Shown: positions 5,134-25,936 of the stretch, piece after piece
How the letters are laid out: every line of letters starts with the position of its first letter
How positions within the stretch are numbered: position 1 is the first letter of the stretch
Origin: an uncultured Candidatus Saccharibacteria bacterium
GTDB lineage: Bacteria; Patescibacteriota; Minisyncoccia; Phycocordibacterales; CSBR16-119
DNA: 64,000 nt
Reading direction: 5' to 3'
Assembly: GCA_964557535.1 (NCBI GenBank)
Contig: CAZLAD010000002.1
Coordinates: 85,560-149,559 of the forward strand
Program-made: the position numbers and the translations under genes
Notes under the pieces: generated by a model
What the model was told of the DNA's origin: nothing
Databases searched by the model: none
The model's input: the letters and a program-made list of their open reading frames with translations, nothing else

Positions 5134-5265
5134 GCGAAACGAAACCATTCATGAAAAGGACTTTCGGAGGCGAGCCTGCCTTTTGAAGGACAGGCTCGCC
5201 GAGAAGGAACGGACGGCCATTTACAGGCCGTACCGTGTGCCTTTTCATGAATGGCTTCGTGGAGC
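5134..5265. repeat. GC-rich multi-hairpin element A, closed by a roughly 20-bp outer stem
   Basis: Outer stem CGAAACCATTCATGAAAAGG / CCTTTTCATGAATGGCTTCG. Inner hairpins GGCGAGCCUGCC-UUUUGAA-GGACAGGCUCGCC and ACGGACGGCC-AUUUACA-GGCCGUACCGU. Confidence 0.6.
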
Positions 5266-5297
5266 AATTTAATAAGTCAAATTTTTAAGCGGAGTAA

Positions 5298-5366
5298 GGC
5301 GGGGCTTTTGAAAGTCTGAGGACGTAGTGCAAAGACACGCTCCCGCGGGACTTGAAAAAGCCCCGC
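5298..5366. repeat. GC-rich hairpin element B with conserved 33-nt core
   Basis: GGCGGGGC...GCCCCGC closing stem. Core GAGGACGTAGTGCAAAGACACGCTCCCGCGGGA is shared with the element at 52684-52773. Confidence 0.65.
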
Positions 5367-5380
5367 TTTGCGAAGCCTTT

Positions 5381-9514: not shown

Positions 9515-10717
9515 TTAAGCGATCGAACTTGCAATGTTGTAAATCGGCACCAAAATAGAAGTTAGGAGAATTCCAACCCCAAGACCGAGAAGCACGATCA
9601 TCGCTGGCTCAATAAGACCAATCAATGTGTCAACCGCGTCGTCGACTTCGCGTCGATAAAAATCCGCAAGAGTTTTTAGAATTGATCCAAGTGAACCCGT
9701 CTCTTCACCGACTTTAATCATCTGCACCATTATTGATGGGACCTCGACATGTCGCCCCATGGCTTCGGACAAAGTCTTTCCGGATTTTACTGATTCCAAC
9801 GCTTCTCTTAGGATAACTGTGTAAACTTGATTGCCCACCACATCAGCTGTGATTTCAATAGCCCGAACGATTGAAATACCCGAAGAAAGCATCGTGTTTA
9901 AGTTGTCAGAAATACGCGAAAGATACATTTTTTTGTACAAATCACCGATAAGCGGAAGAGAAATTTTGAGATGGTCCAAGTACTGTTTTCCCTTGTCACT
10001 TCGATGAAACCAGAAAAGGTAAACGATAAGTGCTACGAAAAATATCGCAATGAAAATTCCATAATTGACCAAGAAGCTACTTATGCCGATGATGATACTA
10101 GTATAGATGGGAATTTCTTGACCAGATTCGAGCAAAAGCTGTGACAGGTTTGGGATGACCATCGTAAACATAAGAAGCATAACGGTGATAAACACCACGA
10201 TAACAAATGCCGGATAAATCAAAGCGTTGCGAGTTTTTGAAGTCAAATTATACTGTCGATCCAAATACTGAGCCAAATATTCAAAAGTTTCGTTTAGTTT
10301 TCCAGATTCTTCACCGGCTTTTATCATGTTTACATAAAATTCCGAGAAAGTGTCAGGGTGCTTGGCTAATGCGTCAGATATGGACGAACCTGCCTGTAAA
10401 TCGTCACTAACTCCGCGCAACTGATTTGCCAACATTTTGTTGTCGGCATTGTCGGAAAGCATGGTAAAAGCTTTCAAGGCCGAAATTTGTGAGGAAAAGA
10501 GTGTGGCGAGTTGTCGCGACATGACCACCACGTCACGAAGCGGTACCCGATCAAGAAAAGTCCCTCTCAAAAAAGATTTGCTTTCTTCTCCTTTGAGCGA
10601 CACCACGATAAATCCGCGTCGCTGAAGTGCAGAAATTGCCACGGTTTTATTTAGGGCATCAATTGAACCGTCTTTTTTCTTCCCTTCTTGGTCTAGGACT
10701 TTGTATTTGAATAACAT
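9515..10717 (-). CDS. pilC: type IV pilus assembly platform protein PilC (GspF family)
   Basis: Two GspF repeats, three TM segments. 400 aa. Confidence 0.9.
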   Translation of the reverse strand: MLFKYKVLDQEGKKKDGSIDALNKTVAISALQRRGFIVVSLKGEESKSFLRGTFLDRVPLRDVVVMSRQLATLFSSQISALKAFTMLSDNADNKMLANQLRGVSDDLQAGSSISDALAKHPDTFSEFYVNMIKAGEESGKLNETFEYLAQYLDRQYNLTSKTRNALIYPAFVIVVFITVMLLMFTMVIPNLSQLLLESGQEIPIYTSIIIGISSFLVNYGIFIAIFFVALIVYLFWFHRSDKGKQYLDHLKISLPLIGDLYKKMYLSRISDNLNTMLSSGISIVRAIEITADVVGNQVYTVILREALESVKSGKTLSEAMGRHVEVPSIMVQMIKVGEETGSLGSILKTLADFYRREVDDAVDTLIGLIEPAMIVLLGLGVGILLTSILVPIYNIASSIA

Positions 10718-10723: not shown

Positions 10724-11788
10724 TTATAACAATGCTTCAAAACTTTTTTTGTTGAACGCATGATAACGTGCGTCTTCGACACTAATTTCACCCCGACGAA
10801 CCAAATCAAGAAGTGAGTGATTCATATCAATCATGCCCTGTTGAGAACTGGTCTCGATAATCAAATCTATCTCATGAGTACGATTTTCACGGATAAGATT
10901 TGCTACGGCTTTGTTGTTGATCAAAAGTTCGTAAGCCGGCACAAGTCCGCCGTTGATACGAGGGATAAGCCTCTGAGAGAAAATTCCTGCCAAAGAATTC
11001 GCAAGTTGTGACCTAGCTTGGTCTTGTTGTTCTGCAGGAAAAGAGTCGATGATACGATCGATTGTCTGTGAAGCGTTGTTGGTGTGAAGCGTTGAAATAA
11101 CCAAATGACCTGTTTCGGCGGCAGTTACGGCCGCAGAAATAGTGTCGCGACTACGCATTTCGCCAATCATCAAAACATTTGCATCCTGGCGAAACGCGGA
11201 TTTCAAGGCTGTGGCAAAAGTTTGGGTGTCGATTCCGACTTCTCGCTGATCGATGATGGATTTTTTGGATTCAAACAAATATTCGATTGGTTCTTCGATA
11301 GTGATGATGTGCTCAGATCGTTCGTTGTTGATGAGATCTATTATCGAAGCCATTGTGGTCGATTTACCCTGTCCGACTGGACCAACAATCAGGAAAAATC
11401 CTTGTTTTATTCTGGCAAATTCTGCCAAGGACGGCGGAAGTCCGAGTTCGGCAAAAGTTTTGACCTGTGGGATAAGTCGAAGAGCGATTCCGATTTTACC
11501 TTTTTGAAAATACGCATTTCCGCGCAGACGATTTGTTTTTTGGTAATTGTAAGCGAAATCAATTTCCTGATTTACTAAAAATTCCTGAAATTTTTTATCA
11601 TCGCCAATCATGTGTTTTATCATGGCGATGACCTCTTCTTGCCCAAGAGGTTCTTGGTTGACCATCGGCACTAACTGAGTCGCGACTCTGATGTTCGGTA
11701 CTCTATCGGTTGCCAAATGCAAATCAGAACCGTTGGCAACAACGACCTGTTCGATTAAATTTTGTAATTTTTGAACTGCTGAATCCAT
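10724..11788 (-). CDS. pilT: twitching motility ATPase PilT
   Basis: Walker A GPVGQGKSTT. Asp box and His box LVISTLHTNNASQTIDRI. 354 aa. Confidence 0.9.
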   Translation of the reverse strand: MDSAVQKLQNLIEQVVVANGSDLHLATDRVPNIRVATQLVPMVNQEPLGQEEVIAMIKHMIGDDKKFQEFLVNQEIDFAYNYQKTNRLRGNAYFQKGKIGIALRLIPQVKTFAELGLPPSLAEFARIKQGFFLIVGPVGQGKSTTMASIIDLINNERSEHIITIEEPIEYLFESKKSIIDQREVGIDTQTFATALKSAFRQDANVLMIGEMRSRDTISAAVTAAETGHLVISTLHTNNASQTIDRIIDSFPAEQQDQARSQLANSLAGIFSQRLIPRINGGLVPAYELLINNKAVANLIRENRTHEIDLIIETSSQQGMIDMNHSLLDLVRRGEISVEDARYHAFNKKSFEALL

Positions 11789-11817
11789 CCCGTTAGAGAT
11801 AGCAAACTTTCGTTTGC
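11789..11817 (-). promoter_or_regulatory. proximal half of the leader-helix motif (AUCUCUAACGGG-AUG) plus hairpin GCAAAC-GAAA-GUUUGC upstream of pilT
   Basis: CCCGTTAGAGAT sits directly 3' of the pilT start codon on the plus strand. The hairpin co-varies with the pilN copy. Confidence 0.5.
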
Positions 11818-11869
11818 GTATCTAATTTATTATTTTGTAAATAATCGACGACCATCTGATTTAATCTAA

Positions 11870-13618
11870 TTAAAACTTATAAACTTCAGTTATCGGAATT
11901 TGGCCGTTTACAGCCTTGATCAAAGCATCTTCTTTCATCGTAAGCATTCCCTTTGATCTAACAACGGCGTGAATGTCGAGCTCTGTCGGTGATTTCAATA
12001 TTGCCGACTCAACGTCTTTGTCTACTTCAAACATTTCAAAAATCGCCATACGTCCTCTTGTTCCCGAAGGACAGGTTGCTGAAGGCACTGTCTTAATCAT
12101 TTTATCACCTATTTTTATTTTTGCTCTATGTTCTGCTGGAAAATCAGCAAATTCTTTGTTGATAATTGCAGAAATAGATTCATCCATAGGCACTTCTTCG
12201 CGTGCATCTTCGCAGGTCTTCTTTGCAAGTCTCTGAGCAATCGCGAGTACAAGTGTCGGTGCAATCAAAAATGGATCAACACCCATGTCGATAAGACGTG
12301 GGATTGCTCCAGCTGAGTTGTTGGTGTGGAGCGTCGATAATACCAAGTGACCGGTCAATGCCGCTTGTATGGCAAGTGAGGCCGTTTCCTTGTCGCGAAT
12401 TTCTCCAACAAGAATAACGTCCGGATCTTGGCGCAAAATTGAACGAAGTCCCGAGGCAAAAGTATACCCGATTTCCGGCATAACCTGAGACTGACTAACG
12501 CCGTCGACATGATATTCGACTGGATCTTCAAGGGAGACGACGTTTTTGGATTCGCGATCGATTTCGTTTAGCATGGCGTATAGGGTCGTAGTTTTACCGG
12601 AACCTGTCGGACCCGTAATCAAAACAATTCCGTAAGGCACTTCTAGTGCGCGCTTCACCATCTCTAGATGTTCTGAAGTCATATCGAGATCTTCCAGACT
12701 TTTTACGCCCTTTTCTGCATCCAAAATTCGCATAACGACTTTTTCTCCATAATACGCAGGGAAAGTCGAAACACGTAAATCAATTTTGCGTCCATCAATT
12801 TTTGCCGTGAATCCACCGTCTTGGGGTTTGCGTTTTTCGTCGAGACGGAGTTTGGATAGTATTTTTATACGCGCGACAACCCCAGAATAGACATTTAGGG
12901 GGAGAGTGAGCGAGGTGTGCAATTCCCCATCAACACGAAAACGGACTTTGACTTCTTTGCCGGTATTTTCGATATGAATATCAGAAGCCATTCCTTCGAC
13001 AGCGTGGCGTAAAATGACGGCGACGACTTTGATGATAGGTGCTTCTTCGACAATCTTTCTCTCGTCGACTTCCTCGGCTTCGGTCTCAGAAATTCTCGAA
13101 CCCTTGGCATTCTTTTGATCTCTCATTTGGGCTTCGGCTTGAGACAACTCGGTATCAAGATCCGAAAGGGCCTGATCAACCTCTCCGGTCATTCCTCGAT
13201 AGCTATCCAAAACAGCGTCATAGGTCTTTTTGGTTATAACAAAAAGTTTATATGGGAGTTCATTTCTAGAAGAAATAAATTGTAAAGCATCAAGCGAATC
13301 GGTTCTGGCGGGATTGACGATTCCCACTTCCAAAACTTTATCTTTGAGTCCAACCGGCACGAACCCATACTGACGAGCTGAATCTTCGGATAGATACTCC
13401 AAAACCCTAGGGTCAAGTTCTTTTTGAGTAACAGACTTTGAAGGAATGCCAAAGAACTGGCTCTTGAAAGCAAGTAGTGCTTCATCATCGATATCTGTTT
13501 CTTTGGCCAAAGCCTCATCGACGTCACCGTTGTATTTTTTTTGAGCAGCTGTGGAAACCCGTGCCAACAACTCTGGCGTCAAAAGACCTTGTTTGACGAG
13601 TCCCTCAAGAAAACTCAT
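11870..13618 (-). CDS. pilB: type IV pilus assembly ATPase PilB (GspE family)
   Basis: Walker A TGPTGSGKTTT. LVLSTLHTNNSAGAIPRL. N-terminal GSPII domain. 582 aa. Confidence 0.92.
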   Translation of the reverse strand: MSFLEGLVKQGLLTPELLARVSTAAQKKYNGDVDEALAKETDIDDEALLAFKSQFFGIPSKSVTQKELDPRVLEYLSEDSARQYGFVPVGLKDKVLEVGIVNPARTDSLDALQFISSRNELPYKLFVITKKTYDAVLDSYRGMTGEVDQALSDLDTELSQAEAQMRDQKNAKGSRISETEAEEVDERKIVEEAPIIKVVAVILRHAVEGMASDIHIENTGKEVKVRFRVDGELHTSLTLPLNVYSGVVARIKILSKLRLDEKRKPQDGGFTAKIDGRKIDLRVSTFPAYYGEKVVMRILDAEKGVKSLEDLDMTSEHLEMVKRALEVPYGIVLITGPTGSGKTTTLYAMLNEIDRESKNVVSLEDPVEYHVDGVSQSQVMPEIGYTFASGLRSILRQDPDVILVGEIRDKETASLAIQAALTGHLVLSTLHTNNSAGAIPRLIDMGVDPFLIAPTLVLAIAQRLAKKTCEDAREEVPMDESISAIINKEFADFPAEHRAKIKIGDKMIKTVPSATCPSGTRGRMAIFEMFEVDKDVESAILKSPTELDIHAVVRSKGMLTMKEDALIKAVNGQIPITEVYKF

Positions 13619-13691
13619 ATTAAAAAGAGGTTAAATTTTCTAATATTCCATGAACAACGACTTTTGATTGTAAATTCTTTACTGACATAAT

Positions 13692-14423
13692 TTACATATT
13701 TCTTTGAATAAATTCACCAAAAGCGTTTTTGTCTTCACTTGAAATTGTTCCGCCAAGTACCTCAACTGTCACATTTTTCAAACAGGTTTTTGTTGACACA
13801 CCATACTGAAAAGCGCCAAACGAACCAGTAGTGCAAGAAGATTGTGGTCCACCATAAACAACCGACAAACCATTTGGTAACTTAAACGTATAACCAACTA
13901 TCGGCGGTGGTGTTACGCCCTGCGCGCTGTAATTTATAGTAGTCGGTGTCCAAGAACTAGGATAAAAAATATCGGTATTACCAAGTTTTACAGCACTCCA
14001 CGCCTCCGGACCAGGAGTAAATATGACATCTCCTCCAGACCCCAAACCAGTATCAGTATTGTCAGCTCCAAAAGGGGCAAATGGATTTGGACGACCTTCG
14101 TTGCCCGGCTGGACAAGCGTGATACTGAAATCTTGTAGTGACTGGAAAGCGAGTGAGGAAAAAATATCATCATTTAATTTAATAGCTTTTAGATTGATTA
14201 GCTGATTGACAAACTCTTGGCTAATCTTGTTGGCTTCTGCTCCTGTTAGGGGGTTTGGATTTACAATTGAACTAACTGGACTACTGCCGGCCGAGGTTTC
14301 GAGGGTGTTGTTTGGTGTCACCGTCTGAACATTTTTTGTTTTACCGAAAAATAGAAAATACGCCAGTCCCAACAGAGCCAAAATTATAACGAAGATTATT
14401 ATGTTTTTGATATTCTTACCCAT
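13692..14423 (-). CDS. membrane-anchored hypothetical protein in the pilus operon
   Basis: N-terminal TM helix, Ser/Thr/Gly-rich extracellular region. Sits between pilO and pilB. Confidence 0.55.
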   Translation of the reverse strand: MGKNIKNIIIFVIILALLGLAYFLFFGKTKNVQTVTPNNTLETSAGSSPVSSIVNPNPLTGAEANKISQEFVNQLINLKAIKLNDDIFSSLAFQSLQDFSITLVQPGNEGRPNPFAPFGADNTDTGLGSGGDVIFTPGPEAWSAVKLGNTDIFYPSSWTPTTINYSAQGVTPPPIVGYTFKLPNGLSVVYGGPQSSCTTGSFGAFQYGVSTKTCLKNVTVEVLGGTISSEDKNAFGEFIQRNM

Positions 14424-14426
14424 TTT

Positions 14427-15068
14427 TTAATCCTTAAGACGATAAGTATTAATCTTGAACAAATATTTATATTGATCGGTATAAACTTTGTCCTTTTCAG
14501 AAGTTCCTGGGGTGAAAGTAATAGACTGAATATCGATCAGACGCAAACTTCTCTCCATCAGCCCCATAAAAGCCACGAAATCTTTGTATGAACCCTCGAC
14601 AGAAAATTGAAGTTCGAAAATATCGTAATCCAAGTTGTCTGTTGGCGATACGGCTGTTCGACGAACCGGCGTGGTCGCTGTAGTAGAAGTTGTTGAGGCG
14701 GTGTTTTCTGTTGATCCTTCTGGTTTTTCTTCTTCCTCTTCCACGAATTGCTTTGGCTCAAATTGGACGTTTCTGACAACGATGCCTTGGTTGGAGGCTT
14801 GTTCTTGGATCTCTAAAATAAGTTTGATGTTATCAACAGTGTCTGGTAACATTTTTTCTAATTTTGCCAAATCTTCTGGGGCAAAACTATTCAATTTGGT
14901 GGTCAAACGATCGCGTTCTTTTTGGAGGTTTGCAGAATTTTGTAGGGCTTGCTCGTAAGCCTCACTCTCCTTCTGGATAGTTTCGATTTCAGAATATATG
15001 GGTTTTGTAATAAGGATAAATCCCCCGATTCCAACCCCTATTAAAACTATTGGTAATAACCATTTCAT
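14427..15068 (-). CDS. pilO: PilO-like pilus assembly protein
   Basis: N-terminal TM, coiled-coil, acidic low-complexity linker. Position in pilMNO. Confidence 0.6.
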   Translation of the reverse strand: MKWLLPIVLIGVGIGGFILITKPIYSEIETIQKESEAYEQALQNSANLQKERDRLTTKLNSFAPEDLAKLEKMLPDTVDNIKLILEIQEQASNQGIVVRNVQFEPKQFVEEEEEKPEGSTENTASTTSTTATTPVRRTAVSPTDNLDYDIFELQFSVEGSYKDFVAFMGLMERSLRLIDIQSITFTPGTSEKDKVYTDQYKYLFKINTYRLKD

Positions 15069-15071
15069 AAA

Positions 15072-15767
15072 TTAACTTTGATTAGGCATCACATTAGAAG
15101 CATCATCTGTTGGTAATGTTGGCGATACGGGCAATGTTTCGGGTATTATTTCTGGCTCGTTCAATGATTGCTGTCTTTCTAGGAAAGATTCATACACGAC
15201 CAGAGACTTGTCCACAGAAAAAGTTAGGTTGAAAGAAATGTTCCCGAACTGATCAAGTGTAAAACTAGAAAATATTGGATTTTTAATGAAATTATTTTGA
15301 GCAAAGAGATCCGACTGCAATGCAATATAATTATAACCTTTTGCTTGACCGTTTATCTTTATATTAACAAGATTTGGATTTTGTTTATTGAATTCATAAG
15401 AGAAATCAGAATAACGAACTGTCGGAAGAGTAATTTCACCCAAAAGAGAAAATATAGGTGAAACAGCAACATGATTATCTAAAATTATCGTAGACGCCTT
15501 CATGCGCTTATCTAGAAGTTGGAGTTTTGTTATAAGTGTTGGCTCAAAAGCCGCTTTCGCTCTGACCAAAGATTCTTTGTAGGACTCCAGAGTATTTAAA
15601 AGAGAAGAACGATAGAAATAAACCCCTCCGGCACCCAAAATTGAAGCGATAAAAATCAAAAGCGCCAAAAGATTTAATAGACCACCAAAACCACCCCCCG
15701 AACGCTTTGGTTCGCGCTCTGCTATCGTTTTTTTAGGTACAAAAGATGTTTGAAATTCTTTATCCAT
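15072..15767 (-). CDS. pilN: PilN-like pilus assembly protein
   Basis: Single N-terminal TM after a basic cytoplasmic segment, periplasmic domain. Follows pilM. Confidence 0.6.
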   Translation of the reverse strand: MDKEFQTSFVPKKTIAEREPKRSGGGFGGLLNLLALLIFIASILGAGGVYFYRSSLLNTLESYKESLVRAKAAFEPTLITKLQLLDKRMKASTIILDNHVAVSPIFSLLGEITLPTVRYSDFSYEFNKQNPNLVNIKINGQAKGYNYIALQSDLFAQNNFIKNPIFSSFTLDQFGNISFNLTFSVDKSLVVYESFLERQQSLNEPEIIPETLPVSPTLPTDDASNVMPNQS

Positions 15768-15883
15768 CCCGTTAGAGATAGCAAATCTTTAGATTTGCGT
15801 ATCTTTTTTATTATTCTTTGAGTAATTCACGACCATATTTTTGTATCTTTTGTGATTAACTTTAACTATAACATCTCTAACGG
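15768..15883 (-). promoter_or_regulatory. structured 5' leader upstream of pilN, closed by the 12/11-bp helix CCGUUAGAGAU ... AUCUCUAACGGG, ending directly at the AUG
   Basis: Plus-strand CCCGTTAGAGAT at 15768-15779 and ATCTCTAACGG at 15873-15883. Internal hairpin GCAAAUC-UAAA-GAUUUGC. TAGAAT sits 10 nt upstream of the distal half. Confidence 0.6.
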
Positions 15884-15896
15884 TATCCATAAAATT

Positions 15897-17036
15897 CTAT
15901 ACTAATTCTCTGAGTGCGAGTCCAGCTGCAACTCCAAACTCTGGACCAGATTCAGCTAAAATGTTTTCCAGAAACGCCGGTGCTTCGATCTGCGCAAATG
16001 AATTACCCATTGATACTTCTGTTCCGAATTTTTCCTTTGCTATCGGCAGAATACCTTTTAACAAAACTCCGCCACCAGTAAGTATAACTTTGTCGATGCT
16101 TTTATTATACTTCTTTTCATAATTCAACACCACATTACCTGCTTCAAAAAAAATATAATCAAGCGTCGATTGTATAACGGCAGACGCTTTAGGTTGTTTA
16201 GGATTATCATTTAATCCAAATTCTTTTTTCATATTTTCAGCATCATGAAAACTCAAACCCAAAGCCGTAACCATAGAGGCGGTGATATCGTGCGAGCCAC
16301 GATTAATTATGTGGAAGTCCTGAATAATGCCACGATCGACTATTGAAATCTTAGTTTTGGCTGCACCAATATCGAGTACCATCGATGTAGCGAGATCTCG
16401 TCCGAGACTTGAGCGCACAGAAGAAAACATTTCAATCTCAAAAAATTCCGTCGAGAGTTTGGCGTCAGCCACGAGACTTTTGTACTTATCGAGCGCTTCA
16501 TTGTGAATTGCGGCAACCAGTACTTTGGTTTTTTCTTGTTGCATATCGCCCGTGGTTGGTTTGTCTGAATCGTCTGTTAAATTATCGAGCGGACGTTTTG
16601 GCACAAGCCACCAATCAATAGACACTTCAGTGATTGGAACGGGAATGTAACGCCTGGCTTCGTTGTAAATAATCGAAGAAATATCTTTTTCATTTATATT
16701 TCCTGGAAGCTCCACTAGAAAAACAAGAGAGGCTGACGCGGGTATCGACATGGCGGAGTTATGAGTTGTTATATTTGCTTCCAGAAACAAATCATTCAGG
16801 GCTTTGACCAGCGCCTCTTCTGGGACAGATATTACTTGTCCGGCCTCGCCTTCTGCGTATGGGGCAACAGAAATAGAACCGTAAGTTTCCAAAACTGCTC
16901 TACCAGAAACTTTCTTGATCTGAACAACTTTTATAGCCGAAGCACCAACATCAATACCAATGACGCTTCCGCTGGAACCACTTTTTAAAACCCCAGAGAG
17001 TTTACCCAAGAGCCCTTTTAGCACTCCTTCTAACAT
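15897..17036 (-). CDS. pilM: type IV pilus assembly ATPase-like protein PilM (actin/FtsA fold)
   Basis: IGIDVGASAIKVVQI phosphate-1 motif, FtsA-like. 379 aa. Confidence 0.85.
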   Translation of the reverse strand: MLEGVLKGLLGKLSGVLKSGSSGSVIGIDVGASAIKVVQIKKVSGRAVLETYGSISVAPYAEGEAGQVISVPEEALVKALNDLFLEANITTHNSAMSIPASASLVFLVELPGNINEKDISSIIYNEARRYIPVPITEVSIDWWLVPKRPLDNLTDDSDKPTTGDMQQEKTKVLVAAIHNEALDKYKSLVADAKLSTEFFEIEMFSSVRSSLGRDLATSMVLDIGAAKTKISIVDRGIIQDFHIINRGSHDITASMVTALGLSFHDAENMKKEFGLNDNPKQPKASAVIQSTLDYIFFEAGNVVLNYEKKYNKSIDKVILTGGGVLLKGILPIAKEKFGTEVSMGNSFAQIEAPAFLENILAESGPEFGVAAGLALRELV

Positions 17037-17093
17037 ATATAGTAAAATTGTATCACAATATAATGATTGATATGGTTAAATTTGTTGATAATT

Positions 17094-17741
17094 ATGAGGA
17101 GTTTGATTAAAAAATTCTTTGCTAGCCTCTTTCCCGCCAAATGCGTGGTCTGTCGATCTTTTGGAACATTTATTTGTGAAAAAGATTTACGACAAATTCC
17201 CTTGTGCGCCAGACCAGACAAGGATTGGATTATTTCTGTTTGGAGCTACAAAAGCCCAGTGATTAAAAAACTTCTCTGGATGCTTAAATTTGAAAACAAG
17301 TTTGCCGTCATCGATGATATCGGCCAAAGTCTTTACGATCACCTCTTTGATGAGCTCACCGAACGGAGTATTTTTGACAATACCCAATCCCCAATTCTCG
17401 TCCCCATTCCACTTTCAAAGAAAAGTTTGCGTCGTCGCGGATACAACCAGTCAGAAATAATCGCAAAAGACCTAAGCGTGCGAAGTCAGGATAGATTGGT
17501 TGTAGAAAATATTTTGAAAAAAATAAAAGAAACGCCGACACAACATTCGATAAAAAATCGCAGTGTTAGGTTGCGAAATCTTCAAAATTCTTTTGCGATT
17601 AAAGATGACGTGTCGTTAAAAGGTAAAAATATAATTCTCGTTGATGACATAACGACTACGCACGCAACGCTTGTCGAAGCCAGACGAACGCTCAAAAACG
17701 CCGGAGCACGGAGCGTGATTGGATTTACCGTGGCGCACTAA
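17094..17741 (+). CDS. comFC: ComF-family phosphoribosyltransferase (competence protein ComFC-like)
   Basis: N-terminal Cys pairs (CVVCRS...C), C-terminal PRTase motif ILVDDITTTHATL. ATG at 17094 (MRSLIKKF); the track start at 17067 is a TTG. Confidence 0.8.
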   Translation: MRSLIKKFFASLFPAKCVVCRSFGTFICEKDLRQIPLCARPDKDWIISVWSYKSPVIKKLLWMLKFENKFAVIDDIGQSLYDHLFDELTERSIFDNTQSPILVPIPLSKKSLRRRGYNQSEIIAKDLSVRSQDRLVVENILKKIKETPTQHSIKNRSVRLRNLQNSFAIKDDVSLKGKNIILVDDITTTHATLVEARRTLKNAGARSVIGFTVAH

Positions 17742-17937
17742 TGGCGCTTTGTAGAACTTGAATTTTCTAACTCCAAAGAAGCGGGTTTTTGATGTTCTTG
17801 TACTTCCCGATCATCGATCTTCTATTTCTCACGAATATATTTTAGCATGTCTAAATAGTCGGTTTTTGTTTCGAATATCACCTGCTCGCGCGCCGACACC
17901 TCAATCAAATGACAAAAGTCATTTTCTTGAGTCATTG

Positions 17938-18024
17938 CGGAGACGAGAGGATTCGAACCTCCGAGGGCTTTTACACCCTACCTCGTTAGCAGTGAGGCGC
18001 TTTCGACCACTCAGCCACGTCTCC
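17938..18024 (-). tRNA. tRNA-Ser (anticodon GCU), class II with long variable arm
   Basis: Reverse complement folds as acceptor GGAGACG/CGTCTCC, D-loop GAGTGGTCGAA, anticodon loop CUGCUAA, long variable arm, T-loop GGAGGTTCGAATCCTCT. No encoded CCA. Confidence 0.85.
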
Positions 18025-18182
18025 ATGAGGCTCACATTAACATAAAATATGTGTATAATAAACCCGCGTAAATGGATGATTGGATGAGATGGGCAAGACA
18101 CAAACTGCTTTGTGTCGAGCCGGAGCCGAAAGCTCCGACCACGAATCCAATTGTCCCGAAGGGCGACAACGCAAAGCATGTT

Positions 18183-18269
18183 GGAGGATTGGATGAGTGG
18201 TTTAAATCAGCGGTTTACTAAACCGCCGGCTGGTAAAACGGCCCGTGAGTTCGAATCTCACATCCTCCG
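18183..18269 (+). tRNA. class II (Ser-like) tRNA with apparent ACU anticodon (unusual; possible pseudo- or atypical tRNA)
   Basis: Acceptor GGAGGAT/ATCCTCC, T-arm GTGAG-TTCGAAT-CTCAC, anticodon arm GCGGT-UUACUAA-ACCGC, long variable arm. Shares the GAGTGGT D-loop with the neighbouring tRNA-Ser. Confidence 0.6.
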
Positions 18270-18289
18270 CAAATTTTCTAAAAAAGCAA

Positions 18290-18311
18290 CCCCGGGCACT
18301 GTGGCCCGGGG
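18290..18311 (-). terminator. GC hairpin CCCCGGGC-ACUGUG-GCCCGGGG followed (minus strand) by a U-tract
   Basis: 8-bp GC stem. The minus strand continues UUGCUUUUUUAG. Lies 25 nt downstream of the small minus-strand ORF. Confidence 0.6.
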
Positions 18312-18335
18312 TATGAGGAGGTTGACCCTCTCGGA

Positions 18336-18446
18336 TCAACTACCAATGGTTAAAATCATGCACAGACAGATGAGGAAGACTACCACGAAAAGTCTTGGTC
18401 TCGTGGTGATCTCATCAAACAGATGCCAGCTGTACTCGGTCTTCAT
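18336..18446 (-). CDS. 36-aa hydrophobic peptide (MKTEYSWHLFDEITTRPRLFVVVFLICLCMILTIGS), candidate small membrane protein or type-I-toxin-like
   Basis: Not in the ORF track (under 60 aa). ATG 18446, TGA 18336-18338. Preceded by TTGACC-N16-TATTAT (18466-18493, minus strand) and followed by the terminator at 18290-18311. Confidence 0.35.
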   Translation of the reverse strand: MKTEYSWHLFDEITTRPRLFVVVFLICLCMILTIGS

Positions 18447-18465
18447 GGTGGTGTGGTTTTCCTTC

Positions 18466-18493
18466 ATAATACCCCAAAAGCAAATTTGGTCAA
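18466..18493 (-). promoter_or_regulatory. sigma70-like promoter TTGACC-N16-TATTAT
   Basis: The minus-strand -35 (18488-18493) and -10 (18466-18471) match the consensus. A G-tract block GGGTGTGGGGGTAAGGGGAGAGG lies just upstream. Confidence 0.45.
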
Positions 18494-18659
18494 GATTTAC
18501 CCCCATTTTCCTCTCCCCTTACCCCCACACCCATATTTATGTTTTTTAGGATGTTGTACGTTAGTTATTCTCTGAATATAGGTTTGGACTTGCACTCTCT
18601 AGGGGGAAATAGTGTATAATTAAAGGCGTTAGTAATTTATCAATTTATTTAAGGAAATT

Positions 18660-18920
18660 ATGCCAGCAAAAAAAGCAAACTCTGCATTTATGAAGCCGAT
18701 GACAATCTCTGCTGAACTAGCAGAAGTTGTCGGAAAAGGCCCAATGCCTCGTTCCGAAGTCGTCAAAGCTCTCTGGGCTTACATCAAGAAGAACGATCTT
18801 CAAGATCCAAAGAACAAGAGAAATATCAACGCTGATGCCAAACTCCAAGCCGTATTCGGTGGAAAGAAAGTAGTCAACATGTTTGAGATGACAAAGCTTG
18901 TCTCAAAACACCTTTCTTAA
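18660..18920 (+). CDS. SWIB/MDM2 domain protein
   Basis: 86 aa, ...VVKALWAYIKKNDLQDPKNKRNINADAKLQAVFGG...MFEMTKLVSKHL, typical of the SWIB fold. Confidence 0.7.
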   Translation: MPAKKANSAFMKPMTISAELAEVVGKGPMPRSEVVKALWAYIKKNDLQDPKNKRNINADAKLQAVFGGKKVVNMFEMTKLVSKHLS

Positions 18921-18929
18921 TCTTCCGTA

Positions 18930-18963
18930 GCAATCAAAAAATCCCCGTGAGGGGATTTTTTGA
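18930..18963. terminator. bidirectional rho-independent terminator AAAAAATCCCCGTGAGGGGATTTTTT
   Basis: Perfect hairpin with an A-tract on one side and a T-tract on the other, between convergent genes. Confidence 0.85.
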
Positions 18964-18967
18964 TTGC

Positions 18968-19474
18968 TTAGTTATTTCTTTGTTTATCACCAGGGACATC
19001 ACCTGTTCCAGATGAATAAAGTGTTTTATCTACAAACTTACCCTCTTTATCTCTTCCTATATATTTCCATTTTCCTAATGCTTCTTTATAAGCTTGTGCA
19101 ACTTTTGCACCCTCTGTTACAAGATAGTTTTCGTAAGCTTTTATCAAGGCTGGGTTTTCTTCCATTCTCTTTTCACCAAGCTTTGAATATTTTGCTGATA
19201 GTTGTTCTGGAGCCTGACCAAAAAATCCCATGATCTTACTTTTCAATGCTTCCATTTTGCCACCTTTCTCTGTCGCGGTTTCGGGTGTTTTATTTTCTAG
19301 TTGCCCCTTAGTTGCGTCTGCCCTGATTGCATCAGATGATTCACTGTCAATCATTCCTGTCTTTTCAGCATGTTCAACAGTCATTCCTGAGTCTACCCTC
19401 TCTTTAACGGCCTCATTAGATGTAAGTTCTTCTTTTCTGCCAGGCGCAACTTCTACTTTTGGTGCTTCTCTCAT
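18968..19474 (-). CDS. hypothetical hydrophilic protein (168 aa, Lys/Glu-rich)
   Basis: Long ORF with a TTTGTA-N17-TATAAT promoter upstream (19490-19520, minus strand). No recognisable domain. Confidence 0.55.
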   Translation of the reverse strand: MREAPKVEVAPGRKEELTSNEAVKERVDSGMTVEHAEKTGMIDSESSDAIRADATKGQLENKTPETATEKGGKMEALKSKIMGFFGQAPEQLSAKYSKLGEKRMEENPALIKAYENYLVTEGAKVAQAYKEALGKWKYIGRDKEGKFVDKTLYSSGTGDVPGDKQRNN

Positions 19475-19552
19475 AAAATTTAAAAATTAAATACTAATTT
19501 AGCGTCTTCTAAGAACTGGCTAAATTATACCAAAATCTCCAAAAGCTACAAA

Positions 19553-20695
19553 CTATAACCCTGTAGAAAATATCGCATTTAGTATCTCTTTTGTTTTTGG
19601 CCCCACTACCCCATCAGCTTTTAGACCATTGGCTTTTTGAAAATCCTTGACGGCCTGAAGCGTACACGGACCGAAGTTTCCTGTAAACGGACAGTCGTTC
19701 ATCGTCTTTGGCGGGTAGAAACCAATTTCGCGCAGACCATATTGGAGCGCCATAACGTCATTTGACAGACTCTTGCCTATCGGCTCTTTGCCCCATGAAT
19801 ACAAAAGGTTCTTCATGTCTTGGCGACCATTTAGATAATCATAAATTCCTCGTGTAGTGGCTCTAGCCATAACAAACGCCGACAAATCAAAAACCTCCGG
19901 TCGAGTTTGCGGTTCATAAATGTACGAATACTCGACGAGAACGCTCGGAATCTTTAGCGTTCGGTTTGACCCGAGGGCAATCAGATTAAAATCGGTAATA
20001 ACACCATTTTCGTCGGCCTTGTTCTTCTCGAGAGGCATGTCACTCACCGGAAAAGTCTGTTTCATTCTCTGGCCTATCGCTTCACCGATAATGATGGCGT
20101 CGTCGTGGTTTGGTAAATTTTCATCTGGGACATAAATAGAAAATCCAGAAAAGTCTCCACGCTCTTTTGGAGAATGGTTCGTGTCATCATTGAAATGAAT
20201 ATTGATAATGATATCGAAATCATTTTCACTGGCCCATTTGTTCACCCCATATAGTTGATAAGCAACTGTCGGCAACGCATCCGCGTGCGGAACTTGTTCG
20301 CCGGGATCAATTTCATTTTCACTAATCGCATTTTTAGTGCTTTCTTTGTGATTTTTTATAAATCTATTTATCTCTCGTTCTTCTTCATCAAAATATTCCT
20401 GAATTTCTGGTATATAGCCGTCGTCGTTTCTAGTTACCGTAACGCTTAATTGTGGATCTTTGGTTAGCTCTTCTTTGATCTTGTTGGCAAGTTGTAAATT
20501 TATAGCCTGCTCACTAACACCGTTGAAATATGCCCCCGAATATTTCTTGTCGTGACCTGGAATGACGAGAATTTTAATTGTTTCTCCCGCACGATAACGT
20601 AGAGCGTTTGGCAAAAACGCTTCTTCGCCAAATGACACTTTTGGTAAAAAACCAAAGATTATTATGATGGCGAAAATATTTAATTTCATAATCAA
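19553..20695 (-). CDS. N-acetylmuramoyl-L-alanine amidase (Amidase_3-like) with C-terminal peptidoglycan-binding domain
   Basis: Signal/TM N-terminus, KILVIPGHD zinc-amidase region, C-terminal LQAVKDFQKANGLKADGVVGPKT PG_binding_1 motif. Confidence 0.75.
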   Translation of the reverse strand: MIMKLNIFAIIIIFGFLPKVSFGEEAFLPNALRYRAGETIKILVIPGHDKKYSGAYFNGVSEQAINLQLANKIKEELTKDPQLSVTVTRNDDGYIPEIQEYFDEEEREINRFIKNHKESTKNAISENEIDPGEQVPHADALPTVAYQLYGVNKWASENDFDIIINIHFNDDTNHSPKERGDFSGFSIYVPDENLPNHDDAIIIGEAIGQRMKQTFPVSDMPLEKNKADENGVITDFNLIALGSNRTLKIPSVLVEYSYIYEPQTRPEVFDLSAFVMARATTRGIYDYLNGRQDMKNLLYSWGKEPIGKSLSNDVMALQYGLREIGFYPPKTMNDCPFTGNFGPCTLQAVKDFQKANGLKADGVVGPKTKEILNAIFSTGL

Positions 20696-21498
20696 TGTTT
20701 TATAGGCAAAACAACCCGAAACGTACTGCCGTGTCCCATGCCAGCAGAATACGCGGAAATCTCGCCGTGCAAAGCATGTACTATTTGCCTAGCCAAATAC
20801 AACCCAAGTCCCGAACCAGCCTCGGAAGCTTTCCCGGCTTTGCCACGCAAAAATTTATCAAAAAGCTCCGAAAGCTCCGCCTTATCAATACCAGGACCTG
20901 TGTCTTTGACCTCGACAACGGCCTTGTGATCTGGCTTCTTGAAACTTACACTGATTTCTCCTTTGTTGGTGTACTTAATAGCGTTATCAATCAAATTAAC
21001 AAAAACCTGTCGCAATTTATTTTGATCTGAACGAATAAAACATGGATTGTTATCGCCCTGAAAGACGAGTCTTAGACCCTTGGCCTCGGCCGACATGCGA
21101 AATTCCTCGACCAAACGACCAACGAAATCATGCAAATCAAATTCTTCGAATTTCATGACCATTCCGCCTTGTTCCATTTTTGAAATATCGAGTAAATCAT
21201 TGACTGTGCCGATGAGATCGTCAGTGGTCAAAAGCAGGTGGTTTACCGTTTCTATTGAAAACTTTTCTTTGAGTGAATCTAGTCCCCATTTTATAGAAGT
21301 AAGTGGACTGCGTAACTGATGTGTCGCAAAAGACAAAAATTCGTTTTTCCTTGCATCTAGATCTGTGAGGTTGGTGTTTAATTTCTGGAGCGCGTCTTTC
21401 TGTCGGCCTTGAGCTCTAGAATTTCTGATCAACAAAGCACCGATTGCCATCATAACAAGAAGCGTTCCAGTCAAAACGATATTTAGGGTTGTCTCCAT
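20692..21498 (-). CDS. sensor histidine kinase
   Basis: N-terminal TM, HisKA H-box (ATHQLRSPLTSI), N-box NLIDNAIKYT, DTGPGI, GSGLGLYLARQIV. Overlaps the amidase start by 4 nt. Confidence 0.88.
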   Translation of the reverse strand: METTLNIVLTGTLLVMMAIGALLIRNSRAQGRQKDALQKLNTNLTDLDARKNEFLSFATHQLRSPLTSIKWGLDSLKEKFSIETVNHLLLTTDDLIGTVNDLLDISKMEQGGMVMKFEEFDLHDFVGRLVEEFRMSAEAKGLRLVFQGDNNPCFIRSDQNKLRQVFVNLIDNAIKYTNKGEISVSFKKPDHKAVVEVKDTGPGIDKAELSELFDKFLRGKAGKASEAGSGLGLYLARQIVHALHGEISAYSAGMGHGSTFRVVLPIKH

Positions 21499-21528
21499 GC
21501 AAATATTTTAACACATTTACGAAACGAT

Positions 21529-21556
21529 TTGCGTGTATTTTATAACATAGTAGAAT
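21529..21556 (+). promoter_or_regulatory. sigma70-like promoter TTGCGT-N16-TAGAAT for the receiver gene
   Basis: The -10 ends 9 nt before the first base of the CCCGTTAGAGAT leader element. Confidence 0.5.
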
Positions 21557-21565
21557 TAAGCTCGT

Positions 21566-21681
21566 CCCGTTAGAGATGTTTTGTTTTACATAACTACGAA
21601 AGCGGTGACGTTACTATTTATAAAAGGTTTATCAAAATTTAATCAAGGTACGTCAGCCCAAGACTGACTATCTCTAACGGG
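21566..21681 (+). promoter_or_regulatory. structured 5' leader closed by a 12-bp long-range helix (CCCGUUAGAGAU ... AUCUCUAACGGG), ending 4 nt before the ATG
   Basis: Perfect 12-nt inverted pair at 21566-21577 and 21670-21681. Internal hairpin GUCAG-CCCAAGA-CUGAC at 21652-21668. See findings. Confidence 0.6.
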
Positions 21682-21685
21682 ATAA

Positions 21686-22042
21686 ATGAAAAAAGTTTTA
21701 ATTATCGAAGACGATTCTTTCCTTCAAGGACTAGCCGCGAACAAACTTTCAAAAAGTGATTTTGCCGTTACAACAGCGAGCAAGGGCGAGGACGCGGTAA
21801 CAAAAATAGTCAACGAGAAATTTGACTGTATACTGCTTGACCTTATGCTTCCAGATATTTCAGGATTCGACATTTTGAAAAATATCAAAGACGCTCACCA
21901 AAAAGTCCCTGTCATCGTTTTCTCCAACCTTTCGGACGACAAAGATATCAAAAGAGCCATGGATTTGGGCGCCGAGGAATACCTCATCAAATCAAACTTC
22001 ACTCTCGAAGAACTCGTCGAAAAAGTCAAAAAAGCCGCGTAA
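21686..22042 (+). CDS. stand-alone response-regulator receiver domain protein (CheY-like)
   Basis: DD...D...T...K receiver residues (IIEDD, ILLDLMLPD, VIVFS, K). 118 aa, no output domain. Confidence 0.88.
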   Translation: MKKVLIIEDDSFLQGLAANKLSKSDFAVTTASKGEDAVTKIVNEKFDCILLDLMLPDISGFDILKNIKDAHQKVPVIVFSNLSDDKDIKRAMDLGAEEYLIKSNFTLEELVEKVKKAA

Positions 22043-22065
22043 ACGACCCTTAAAAATCTCCGCAC

Positions 22066-22223
22066 TAAAAACAAGATGTTTTGCCTTAAAAGTCCGTTCT
22101 GTTTGAGGAGTGTCTAAACACTCCGAGTTAACGGATCTTTTTGGCTTAAAACATCTTGTTTTTAGGCTAGATTTTTTCTGGGTCTTGAATTTTTGGTTAC
22201 TTTTGCTTCAAGGCAAAAGTAAC
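22066..22223 (+). promoter_or_regulatory. nested hairpin region between the receiver gene and recG (terminator or attenuator-like)
   Basis: 18-nt perfect inverted repeat CTAAAAACAAGATGTTTT at 22066-22083 and 22148-22165, enclosing hairpin GGAGTG-TCTAAA-CACTCC (22107-22124). A third hairpin GTTACTTTTGC-TTCAAGG-CAAAAGTAAC lies at 22196-22223. Confidence 0.5.
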
Positions 22224-22250
22224 GGAGAGAGCTACTGTATAATAGAACTC

Positions 22251-24455
22251 ATGCAAATCTCGGAAAGGATTGAAGATAATTTTAGATTAACTCCAGACCA
22301 GAAAAAGGCTCTTTCGCGTCTCGGCTTGCAAACGATTGAAGATCTCCTATTTTACTTCCCCACCCGCTACAGCGACATAAGCGAAATCAAACTCATCCGC
22401 GATCTCGTCGCCGGCGATGTCGCGACAGTTTATGGCGAGATAAATAAACTCAAAGTCAAAAAAGCCTTTCGAAGCAAAATACCTATGGCCGAAGGCGTCA
22501 TCGATGACGGCACCGGCCGACTCAAAGTCACATGGTTTAACCAAGCCTACATCGGAAAAATGCTTCACGACGGACAGAAGGTTTCACTAACTGGAAAAAT
22601 TAGCGAAGGCAAATACGGCATGTCGATGTCGAATCCTGAATACGCGCCGACAGCTGGTCTCCCTATCGACATGCACAACACACTTTTCGCTGGAGAAAAT
22701 TCCGAAGAATTTTCATATCCAATTTATCCCGAAACTCGCGGCATCACTTCAAAATGGATTTATCACGCCGTGCAAAAAATTGTTGGGAGTGGAATCATAA
22801 AAAGTCTGAACGAATATATTCCGGAGGAGATTTTAGAAAAGTATCATTTACCGAAACTTTCAACAGCGCTGGTATGGATCCATATGCCAAAGAAAAAATC
22901 TGACGCCGATTCAGCTCGAAAACGTTTTGCCTTCGAAGAAGTTTTTATGATTCAGCTCGAAAAAGCCCGCGAGCGCGAAGAAAATCGCGAGAAAAAATCT
23001 TTTAAAATTTCTGTCGACAAAAAAGATATTCTGGATTTTACAAAACGCTTTCCATTCGAAATGACGGCCGGACAAAAATCAGCAATCGATGACATACTTC
23101 AAGACTTCCAAAAAGAATATCCGATGTCGCGACTTCTCGAAGGAGACGTTGGTTCGGGCAAAACAGCCGTCGCAGCCACGGCAGCGTATGCGGTGATCAA
23201 CAATAAGCCCTTCGACGTTGCTCGGGGCCGTTTGCAGACCTTCGGAAATCTGCAAACGGCCTACATGGCGCCGACGGAGATCTTGGCCAATCAACATTTT
23301 GAAAGTTTTATAAAATATTTTACTCACCCGTCCGAACGAGACGGTTCGGCTCGGGCGGGTACCGGCATCCAGGTCGGACTAATCACCGGCTCGGGATGCA
23401 AGAAGTTTCCGTCAAAAATAAACCCGACGGAGTGGACGGATATTTCAAAAGCCCAACTACTAAAATGGGTGGCCAATGGCGAAATCCCAATCCTTATCGG
23501 CACACACGCCCTCATTTACAAGTCCGTCAAGTTCAAACATTTGGCGCTTACCATCGTCGACGAACAGCATCGCTTCGGAACAAAACAACGCGGCAAATTG
23601 GCGAAAAAAGATGAATTTGCACCACATTTTCTGTCGATGACGGCGACGCCTATTCCCCGCACGCTCGCGCTCACCATCTACGGCGACCTCGATTTGACGC
23701 TCCTAGATGAAATGCCGGCTGGCCGAAAAAAAGTCATCACTGAAATCATCGCGCCCAACAAACGTGACGAAACATATGATTTTATAAAAAGTGAAATGGC
23801 AAACGGTCGCCAGCTCTACGTCATCTGCCCGAGAATTGATGAACCTGATCCGGATAAAGAATTTGCGTTACAGGCAAAGTCGGTCAAAGCCGAGGCACAG
23901 AGATTGAAACGTGAAATTTTCCCCGACAAAACAATCGGCATTCTGCATAGCAAAATGACACCAGCCGAAAAAGAACGCGTCATGGAAAAATTTGAAAAAG
24001 CCGAAATTGATATTTTATGCGCGACGTCAGTCGTCGAAGTCGGCGTGAACGTCCCAAACGCTACACTCATCATAATTGAAGGCGCGGAAAGATTCGGCCT
24101 GGCCCAACTTCACCAGCTTCGTGGACGTGTTATACGTTCGAACCATCAGGCGTATTGTTTCGTCATGCCAGAAAGCGTTAGCAAGAAAAGTGTGGATAGA
24201 TTGAAAGCTTTGAAGACTGCCAAAAATGGATTTGAACTTTCGGAACTCGACTTACAACTTCGCGGTTCAGGAGACCTAGCTGGCATGAAGCAATGGGGCG
24301 TCACAGACCTTGGTATGGAAGCGATCAAAAATATTAAAATGGTCGAAGCCGCGCGAAACGAAGCGCGTGAAATCGTAACCAACAACCTCCTGCCTAAATT
24401 CCCCGCCCTAGAAACTGAATTCCTAAAACGAGAAAAGAAAATTCACTTTGAATAA
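22251..24455 (+). CDS. recG: ATP-dependent DNA helicase RecG
   Basis: Wedge domain, helicase motifs GDVGSGKT, DEQHRFG, TATPIPRTL. ATG at 22251 (MQISER...) sits 7 nt after a TATAAT box; the track start at 22110 is upstream of that box. Confidence 0.92.
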   Translation: MQISERIEDNFRLTPDQKKALSRLGLQTIEDLLFYFPTRYSDISEIKLIRDLVAGDVATVYGEINKLKVKKAFRSKIPMAEGVIDDGTGRLKVTWFNQAYIGKMLHDGQKVSLTGKISEGKYGMSMSNPEYAPTAGLPIDMHNTLFAGENSEEFSYPIYPETRGITSKWIYHAVQKIVGSGIIKSLNEYIPEEILEKYHLPKLSTALVWIHMPKKKSDADSARKRFAFEEVFMIQLEKAREREENREKKSFKISVDKKDILDFTKRFPFEMTAGQKSAIDDILQDFQKEYPMSRLLEGDVGSGKTAVAATAAYAVINNKPFDVARGRLQTFGNLQTAYMAPTEILANQHFESFIKYFTHPSERDGSARAGTGIQVGLITGSGCKKFPSKINPTEWTDISKAQLLKWVANGEIPILIGTHALIYKSVKFKHLALTIVDEQHRFGTKQRGKLAKKDEFAPHFLSMTATPIPRTLALTIYGDLDLTLLDEMPAGRKKVITEIIAPNKRDETYDFIKSEMANGRQLYVICPRIDEPDPDKEFALQAKSVKAEAQRLKREIFPDKTIGILHSKMTPAEKERVMEKFEKAEIDILCATSVVEVGVNVPNATLIIIEGAERFGLAQLHQLRGRVIRSNHQAYCFVMPESVSKKSVDRLKALKTAKNGFELSELDLQLRGSGDLAGMKQWGVTDLGMEAIKNIKMVEAARNEAREIVTNNLLPKFPALETEFLKREKKIHFE

Positions 24456-24460
24456 AAACA

Positions 24461-24488
24461 AAACCACCCTTTCGGGTGGTTTTGTTTG
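24461..24488 (+). terminator. rho-independent terminator AAACCACCCTTTCGGGTGGTTTTGTTTG
   Basis: Hairpin plus U-tract immediately after the recG stop. Confidence 0.85.
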
Positions 24489-24494
24489 CAAATT

Positions 24495-25718: not shown

Positions 25719-25861
25719 ATATTTCTTATCTATAAAATTAATAATTTTACGTCAACTCAAAGCAGGGTTACTTTGGCCAACTTTGATCTGCGACAAGGTT
25801 GTCTTCAAATCAACATTGAAATTATATACTATGGAATATCTATTGTCAAAAAAATATTTTG

Positions 25862-25936
25862 TCCACCCTCCACGACTCGAACGTGGGACCCTCGAGGTAT
25901 AAGCTCGATGCTCTAACCAACTGAGCTAAGGGTGGT
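25862..25936 (-). tRNA. tRNA-Ile (anticodon UAU)
   Basis: Reverse complement: acceptor CCACCCU/AGGGUGG, D-arm GCUCAGUUGGUUAGAGC, anticodon arm UCGAG-CUUAUAC-CUCGA, T-arm CCACG-UUCGAGU-CGUGG, discriminator A. Confidence 0.8.

Follow-up and report, generated by a model that had tools for sequence, protein, structure and literature searches.

The Correia elements (CREE) of Neisseria are described as non-coding units of ~100-150 bp that are bounded by inverted repeats, lie directly upstream of genes and differ in presence or absence between strains (PMC2649163). The same account has CREE transcribed into hairpins that can be bound or cut by RNase III, which alters the expression of the adjacent gene. 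Their conserved repeats measure ~26 bp, the target is TA, the copies number in the hundreds, and the ends of the element give rise to promoters. REPINs are ~70-110 nt long, have two conserved ends and a hairpin-forming spacer and are regarded as single-strand mobile units; compensatory changes on both sides of their hairpins are common (PMC3116915). They are symmetric REP doublets mobilised by RAYT (Y1 HUH) transposases, are scattered through extragenic space, show no target duplication and have a RAYT gene alongside. The Rickettsia palindromic elements (RPE) are mobile palindromes of ~100-150 bp in a reduced, gene-dense genome, where they survive only at sites that leave genes undestroyed (PMC10969869). 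They are inserted inside ORFs and are translated in frame. Finally, in 5' leaders that are processed by RNase III or gated by structure, such as the phage lambda N leader and the T7 intercistronic hairpins, a long-range helix encloses the leader with its base at the translation start.

The window, which is the whole 64,000-nucleotide stretch of DNA that was analysed, holds a family of hairpin-forming repeats that has something in common with each of these systems. The copies are 65-118 nt long and non-coding, with no reading frame conserved across them. The size, inverted ends, position directly upstream of genes and presence or absence between strains are as in CREE. In contrast to CREE, only 8 nt are conserved, the inner part of the arm covaries, the flanking repeat contains the ATG, there is no convincing outward promoter and the host belongs to the CPR. 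The element has the two conserved ends and hairpin-forming interior of a REPIN, but it is asymmetric with a hairpin at the right end only, it has a 7-bp duplication at pilN, and no RAYT gene is present in the window. Its core, GTTAG, resembles the GTAG motif of REPs. It shares with RPE the palindromic form and the survival in a gene-dense genome where genes are spared, but it lies at the 5' edge of ORFs rather than within them. If transcribed and functional, it would have the geometry of the lambda N and T7 structures; those, however, are fixed parts of genes, whereas the element is a multi-copy insertion with empty alleles and only a putative RNase III site. Several generic features of a prokaryotic MITE were found, namely a length of <300 bp, non-coding content, multiple copies, terminal inverted repeats and empty-site polymorphism. 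The family probably belongs among the small palindromic mobile elements, as a variant distinguished by an apparently start-codon-duplicating insertion in an SD-less, leaderless-rich CPR genome. A literature search found no account of small mobile repeats in CPR/Patescibacteria, where such repeats are hardly described.

Copies of the element and their pairing

The copies in the window have the following features.

15768-15883, minus strand: pilN copy of the long form (116 nt), lying between the stop codon of pilM and the ATG of pilN (covariance model 112 bits)
15873-15883, minus strand: left (distal) terminal repeat of the pilN copy, CCGTTAGAGAT
15769-15779, minus strand: right (proximal) terminal repeat of the pilN copy, ATCTCTAACGG, followed by G15768 and then the ATG at 15767-15765
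15781-15798, minus strand: subterminal 7-bp hairpin of the pilN copy, GCAAATC-TAAA-GATTTGC, 1 nt before the proximal arm
15884-15890, minus strand: left-hand ATGGATA of the 7-bp direct duplication, where the start codon formerly stood
15761-15767, minus strand: right copy of ATGGATA, the working start of pilN
21566-21681, plus strand: long-form element, receiver copy, with arms at 21567-21577 and 21670-21680 (covariance model 106 bits)
21652-21668, plus strand: hairpin GTCAG/CTGAC of the receiver copy
21551-21556, plus strand: native TAGAAT -10 box of the receiver gene, outside the element and kept in element-free relatives
11789-11869, minus strand: pilT copy, 5'-truncated or decayed, with hairpin and right arm but without left arm (covariance model 44 bits)
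34897-34965, minus strand: short-form element before secY, with AATGAC on both flanks (covariance model 23 bits)
34958-34947 and 34909-34898, minus strand: arms of the secY copy, CCGTTAGTAAAT and ATTTACTAATGG
1-13, minus strand: left arm of the gatC short form, the remainder lying beyond the window edge (L011 9944-10012)

The gene assignments of the window hold for PilM, PilO, PilB, PilT, the response-regulator receiver, SecY and GlmS. On the minus strand the ATG of pilN is preceded by the 12 nt ATCTCTAACGGG, and the first 11 of these are exactly complementary to CCGTTAGAGAT across a gap of 93 nt. The inverted pair that had been predicted to end at the pilN start is therefore exact (15779-15769 plus G15768, and 15883-15873), and the internal hairpin is found where it was described, at 15798-15781. 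The receiver copy, the secY variant (34958-34898) and the pilT half-copy (11789-11869) are likewise as first reported. The original prediction also placed an orphan distal half at positions 2-13, and this turned out to be part of a complete short-form copy. L011, a sequence of the same strain that runs past the window edge, reads CCGTTAGAGATTT, 35 nt, AAATCTTCTAATAGG and then the gatC ATG. The public gatC call (L011 9926-10291) starts at a TTG 10 nt after glmS and stays in frame through the whole short-form element, adding ~29 residues to a GatC that otherwise starts MDEKAIEKL. The family thus has a consequence for annotation. Only the gatC copy is open in this way; in most copies there are stops in frame, or the frame differs from that of the upstream ATG (offsets 123, 72, 124 and 122 nt).

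Two forms can be distinguished. The long form is ~116 nt (range 106-118) and comprises the pilN and receiver copies and the truncated pilT copy of the window, the pilN copy of the related locus L004, and two copies in L093, a distant contig whose PilM is 49% identical. The short form is ~65 nt and comprises the secY and gatC copies and the receiver copy of L004. Every copy has the termini (GTC)CCGTTAG...CTAACGG(GA), and every right arm abuts an ATG. The arms are inverted and 11-16 nt long, with an outer 8-nt core, CCCGTTAG/CTAACGGG, that is conserved in all copies; further inward the extension is variable yet self-complementary. In the long forms the sequence TAC-hairpin-T precedes the right arm, so that the hairpin lies 1 nt inside that arm, whereas the short forms have in common an interior motif like GCGGGAAAUAAG. 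In the clearly homologous long copies the hairpin is on the gene side in all, whichever DNA strand is used. Arms containing AGAGAT are common to the pilN, receiver, pilT and gatC copies, which belong to one genome, whereas copies at the same genes elsewhere differ. No common function links the genes that follow the element (pilN, pilT, a response regulator, secY, gatC and an unknown ORF), and the flanking genes are core operon genes, for example pilMNO, rplO-secY and glmS-gatC.

The 11-mer CCGTTAGAGAT occurs exactly six times in the window, where 0.031 occurrences are expected from base composition. The core CTAACGGG occurs 6 times against 0.87 expected, a count reached in 0 of 100 shuffles. 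If up to 2 mismatches are allowed, the 11-mer shows no excess (14 matches, shuffle mean 14). No Rfam family matched over 11700-22000 at the gathering threshold or at E<=10, in keeping with the claim that the family is undescribed as an RNA.

Compared with shuffled sequence, the fold is stronger for the pilN and receiver copies (z = -4.3 and -3.5) and no stronger for the gatC short form (z = +0.38). The five long-form copies were compared over 21 proposed pairs. Standard pairs fill 91.4% of the cells, and 10 of the 21 pairs are changed on both sides; the observed values were reached in 0 of 500 shuffles (n=5 sequences). Slid controls on the same five copies pair at only 32-43%. The hairpin of the copy at L093:220-336, GGAAATC/GATTTCC, is a compensated variant of the hairpin of the window pilN copy. 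Thus the expectation that the internal hairpin changes in sequence and keeps its pairing was borne out. Arms and hairpin remain paired while sequence conservation is limited to the outer 8 nt, a pattern that speaks for a folded single strand and against half-sites read independently by protein. The strand was addressed by the asymmetry of G·U and A·C pairs, which gave 3 sense-strand G·U pairs against 1 antisense, too few to decide. Maintained pairing neither separates RNA from single-stranded DNA nor proves regulation. Covariation is not diagnostic of a regulatory RNA because mobile DNA of the REPIN type also covaries; read naively, it would lead to the element being misclassified as a riboregulator.

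Empty sites and duplicated start codons

By its PilM homologues the window belongs to Candidatus Paceibacterota (Parcubacteria, CPR). A tree of relatives from PilM, PilB and PilT identity is (((L004, L163), L165), window), with L164, L007 and L009 further out. In L163, L164, L165, L007 and L009 the pilM-pilN gap is only 3-9 nt and free of the element. The empty site of L163 reads AATTTTATGGATAAAGAA, with the junction AAATAGAATTTTATGGATAAAGAA, and the same junction in the window reads TATAGAATTTTATGGATA, then the element, then ATGGATAAAGAA. The window sequence is therefore that of the empty site with 116 nt inserted and with 7 bp, ATGGATA, directly duplicated, the start codon included. A TAGAAT before the pilN copy had been proposed as its promoter. 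It is part of the pilM stop-codon context and is also found in element-free relatives.

The receiver gene shows the same type of difference. In L167, L168 and L169 it has a bare leaderless promoter, TAGAAT-N6/7-ATG, and no element. In the window a long-form element stands between the -10 box and the ATG, and L004 has a short form at the same spot. The site is empty in L168, which has the receiver protein closest to that of the window (87% identity), and in L167, the sister of L004 (115 of 118 receiver residues identical). The TAGAAT that had been counted as part of the motif at the receiver copy is the native promoter of that gene, since element-free relatives have it as well.

The pilB-pilT gap is 2-11 nt in relatives, whereas the window holds there a copy without its left arm. 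L004 reads TTTTTAAC-GAG-ATGGAT at 15195-15205, and its sister L163 reads TTTTTAAC-ATGGAT at 9905-9912. The extra GAG in L004 is a probable deletion scar of a former element ending in ...CTAACGAG. The deletion would have occurred between TAAC microhomologies, and the GAG would recreate the L004-type right end, TAACGAG-ATG.

Further copies were sought by screening 2.05 Mb of Paceibacteria loci for inverted repeats that abut an ORF-initiating ATG, and by regex and covariance-model searches of ~2 Mb (~150 loci). The inverted-repeat screen gave two further copies, both in L093. The L093 pilN copy reads ACAG-ATGGAT-CCCGTTAGAGGC...GCCTCTAACGGG-ATGGATAAA. The second, before an unknown ORF, reads GAT-ATGAT-CCTGTTAGAAGT...TAC-GGAAATC-TAAA-GATTTCC-T-ACTTCTAACAGG-ATGAAT; it keeps the hairpin, loop and spacers of the window copy with a compensated C/G swap. 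Both are flanked by direct repeats that contain the ATG. The covariance model was built from the five long copies, and the window was searched with filters off; nothing was found beside the four scored copies listed above. Scores of the long copies in the window and relatives reach 95-117 bits. Among the ~150 other loci the model found nothing besides L004 and L093. A 22-bit match at L080:18349-18450 lacks the core motif and was rejected as spurious. A PilM scan of genome and metagenome collections gave relatives of <=74% identity, all without the element except L093, and two pattern scans of viral contigs gave no match. The family is dense in three lineages (5 copies in 74 kb of the window species, 2 in 21 kb of the L004 lineage, 2 in 15 kb of L093) and absent from the remaining loci, including sister lineages. 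pilN is occupied in all three element-bearing lineages, the receiver gene in two and pilT in one, with the probable L004 scar in addition.

These comparisons show that the copies were inserted into gene junctions whose ancestral form is compact. Where preservation is best, a short direct duplication containing the ATG flanks the copy, with the apparent old start left of the element and an intact start rebuilt flush on its right. The exact end of the helix at the start codon would follow from such a duplication, which restores the ATG directly beside the right arm. The duplicated stretch is perfect at the window pilN site (ATGGATA, 7 bp) and the L093 pilN site ((G)ATGGAT), and partial at L093:215-340 (ATGA). 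At secY (AATGAC) and the L004 receiver (GATG) the flanking repeats are offset or short, and none is evident at the window receiver and gatC sites. Clean duplications are limited to three copies, with repeats that are short, offset or absent elsewhere, so that neither the length nor the existence of a fixed target duplication is certain.

A second strain, L166, is ~98.8% identical to the window. Its pilN, pilT and receiver copies show no differences over 314 nt, and its other non-coding DNA differs at 24 of 1,324 nt, with some of the differences clustered. The gatC copy has one difference between strains, at a paired position.

Readings of the family

The family probably consists of small, non-coding, hairpin-forming insertion elements of the MITE/REPIN type that are found in a few lineages of Paceibacterota (CPR). 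A transposase acting in trans would move the elements. With intergenic gaps of 3-10 nt, insertions elsewhere would be lethal and only copies that regenerate an ATG would persist. The pairing of the ends would be kept because the folded single strand is the form in which the element spreads or is tolerated. A copy would be transcribed from the native leaderless promoter, as at the receiver gene, or within the pil operon, and the terminal repeats would close a stem in the mRNA. The base of that stem would set the old initiation point (the leaderless promoter or the upstream stop) beside the new AUG. The fold would probably dampen or gate translation, or be trimmed by RNase III. The candidate outcomes for translation are melting by ribosomes that start at the duplicated ATG, trimming by RNase III, or simply reduced expression. 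A duplicated upstream ATG is present in the window pilN and secY copies, the L004 receiver copy and both L093 copies. An effect of the element on expression is plausible in such an SD-less, leaderless-rich genome.

The empty sites and flanking duplications speak for this reading, as do the patchy distribution, the arms common to one genome, the truncated pilT copy with the probable L004 scar, the unrelated genes that follow the element and the compensatory changes known from REPINs. Another palindromic element of the window, at 22065-22165, is a supporting case, being present in one strain and absent in the other. Several observations stand against it. First, terminal repeats bound by a transposase should be conserved in sequence, and here only the outer 8 nt are. 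Second, a search of the window and of the loci compared, which covered ~74 kb or ~10% of the host genome, gave neither a transposase or RAYT gene nor a long element with matching ends, and a Pfam scan of 40 window ORFs gave no transposase. Third, the same genes are occupied in independent lineages, the hairpin is always on the gene side and the strain differences are 0 in 314 nt. For this third set and for the limited conservation of the ends, selection on function fits as well as site-specific targeting. The lack of strain differences, the hairpin orientation and the repeated occupancy fit either a strong target preference with purifying selection or selection for an effect at the RNA level.

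Read as mobile inserts, the family would be a case of selfish DNA that persists with almost no intergenic space by occupying and rebuilding start codons. If the transcribed hairpin modulates initiation, it would also be a natural experiment on how SD-less, leaderless-reliant ribosomes face structured leaders.

A related and rather unlikely reading is that of a mobile 5'-leader cassette with a function at the RNA level. Landing on a start codon would give leaderless or coupled genes a closed, SD-less leader, whose helix would have to open, for instance through translation that starts at the duplicated old ATG, or be cleaved flush at the AUG, for instance by RNase III, before the gene is translated. 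If this were true, pilus, secretion and signalling genes would be under common post-transcriptional control, with the wiring acquired repeatedly by lineages.

The original prediction saw in the element a dedicated cis-regulatory 5' leader RNA of these genes, whose closing helix sequesters positions -1 to -13 and which acts as a gate, a 5'-end stabiliser or an RNase III site. On this account pili, the response regulator, secY and gatC would form a small regulon, and RNase III would regenerate a leaderless mRNA. The pairing strongly kept through both-side changes, the better folding of full copies, the right arm at every ATG and the gene-facing hairpin all agree with it. So do the occupation of pilN and the receiver gene in independent lineages and the 0 substitutions in 314 nt between strains that differ at ~1.5% of other non-coding positions. 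The genome is SD-less and rich in leaderless geometry (17 of 67 genes), so that a processing step restoring a 5'-AUG would make biological sense, and CPR bacteria are reported to retain RNase III (PMC12641178). The phylogeny goes the other way. In the nearest relatives these genes are free of the element and retain compact ancestral junctions, and L093, at 49% PilM identity, has it; a patchy distribution of this kind is not that of a conserved cis-regulatory RNA. The 7-bp duplication at pilN and the other flanking repeats, and the different forms at the same gene across lineages, also speak against it. In addition, the pilT copy is retained though it has lost its distal half, the gatC short form folds no better than shuffles, the genes concerned are a heterogeneous group, Rfam has no such family, and covariation of the kind seen is shared with REPIN-type mobile DNA. 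An element that lands on start codons and apparently duplicates them is probably no ancient dedicated regulatory RNA, and this reading is doubtful.

Pilus genes are classic targets of phase variation. This background and the conservation of the outer 8-nt core in all copies would favour an element acting as DNA, either with the CCCGTTAG half-sites as operators of a DNA-binding regulator or as the inverted repeats of an invertible promoter switch. Such a role is very improbable. A protein reading two independent half-sites has no need of the covarying inner arms, and the spacing of the half-sites ranges from ~47 to 101 nt. The short forms enclose only ~35 nt, too short for inversion, and two strains and three further assemblies agree in orientation. 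Neither a recombinase nor a regulator gene was found beside the copies, and the housekeeping genes secY and gatC carry the element. A chance or compositional repeat in AT-rich intergenic DNA, for which the lack of an excess at <=2 mismatches might be cited, is refuted by the six exact copies against 0.03 expected and by the homology of interior and hairpin, at 95-117 bits, between copies and distant genomes.

Some candidates for the element or its parts were tried and rejected. The best candidate for an outward promoter at the right end, TGCTATCTC-N7-ATG, is missing the essential final T, and the L093 and L004 copies do not preserve it. Neither ARAGORN nor Rfam found anything at the element that would make it tRNA-like or a substrate of RNase Z. 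An encoded peptide or an in-frame extension of the RPE type is inconsistent with the frames and stop codons, which differ between copies. An intrinsic terminator of the upstream gene would have a U tract, and there is none. In an integron attC site (5'-RYYYAAC...GTTRRRY-3', found among gene cassettes beside an integrase) the order is the reverse of that seen here, where GTTAG is outermost on the 5' arm and the neighbours are core operon genes.

Translation context and other features of the window

An SD-like 4-mer is found before only 3 of 67 genes, compared with 9% at random positions. A TANNNT box ending 5-9 nt before the ATG is found at 17 of the 67, compared with 7% at random positions. 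These counts suggest that leaderless mRNAs and SD-independent initiation are the norm in the host. It had been pointed out that the element genes have no Shine-Dalgarno sequence, which is true; but with the near-absence across 67 genes this is a property of the organism and not one special to the genes that carry the element.

Ribosomal-protein, nusA and clpP genes are directly preceded by leaders made up of 3-5 tandem 7-nt units (GCTAAYR-like, for example AGCTAACAGCTAACAGCTAA), which have CTAAC(GG) in common with the right arm of the element. These leaders could be an SD-independent translation signal or a protein-binding array. They are at the following positions.

37395-37425: 7-nt-unit leader
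37728-37758: 7-nt-unit leader
39323-39356: 7-nt-unit leader
41623-41659: 7-nt-unit leader
44155-44214: 7-nt-unit leader
48868-48898: 7-nt-unit leader
56395-56437: 7-nt-unit leader
59346-59378: 7-nt-unit leader

A second intergenic palindromic family is found at 5139-5260, 22065-22165, 53212-53347 and 59982-60102. Its members have unique closing arms of 18-30 nt, a conserved GC-rich structured core and a CGGAG-like flank, and Rfam contains none of them. L166 lacks the copy at 22065-22165, with CTTAAAA direct repeats on either side of the difference. Two stem-closed elements, at 5296-5369 and 52684-52773, have a common GAGGAC..GTGC..GACACGC inside a GCGGGGC/GCCCCGC helix and gave no significant Rfam match. 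A candidate type III hammerhead ribozyme at 55700-55754 (plus strand) scores 47.9 bits against a gathering score of 48.5 (E = 3e-8). It overlaps the start of an ORF (55713-56252) that has no Pfam match.

ARAGORN predicts a tRNA-Ser with anticodon ACT at 18183-18270 (plus strand) and a tRNA-Ile with anticodon TAT at 25861-25935 (minus strand), both anticodons being unusual for bacteria. The RecG gene, within 22145-25718, is ~91% identical between strains, compared with ~98.8% in the flanks. It adjoins a gene of the AIPR (abortive-infection) type at 24495-25718, where L166 has a different ORF of 316 aa. The RecG/AIPR region, 22145-25718, is possibly a variable defence island.
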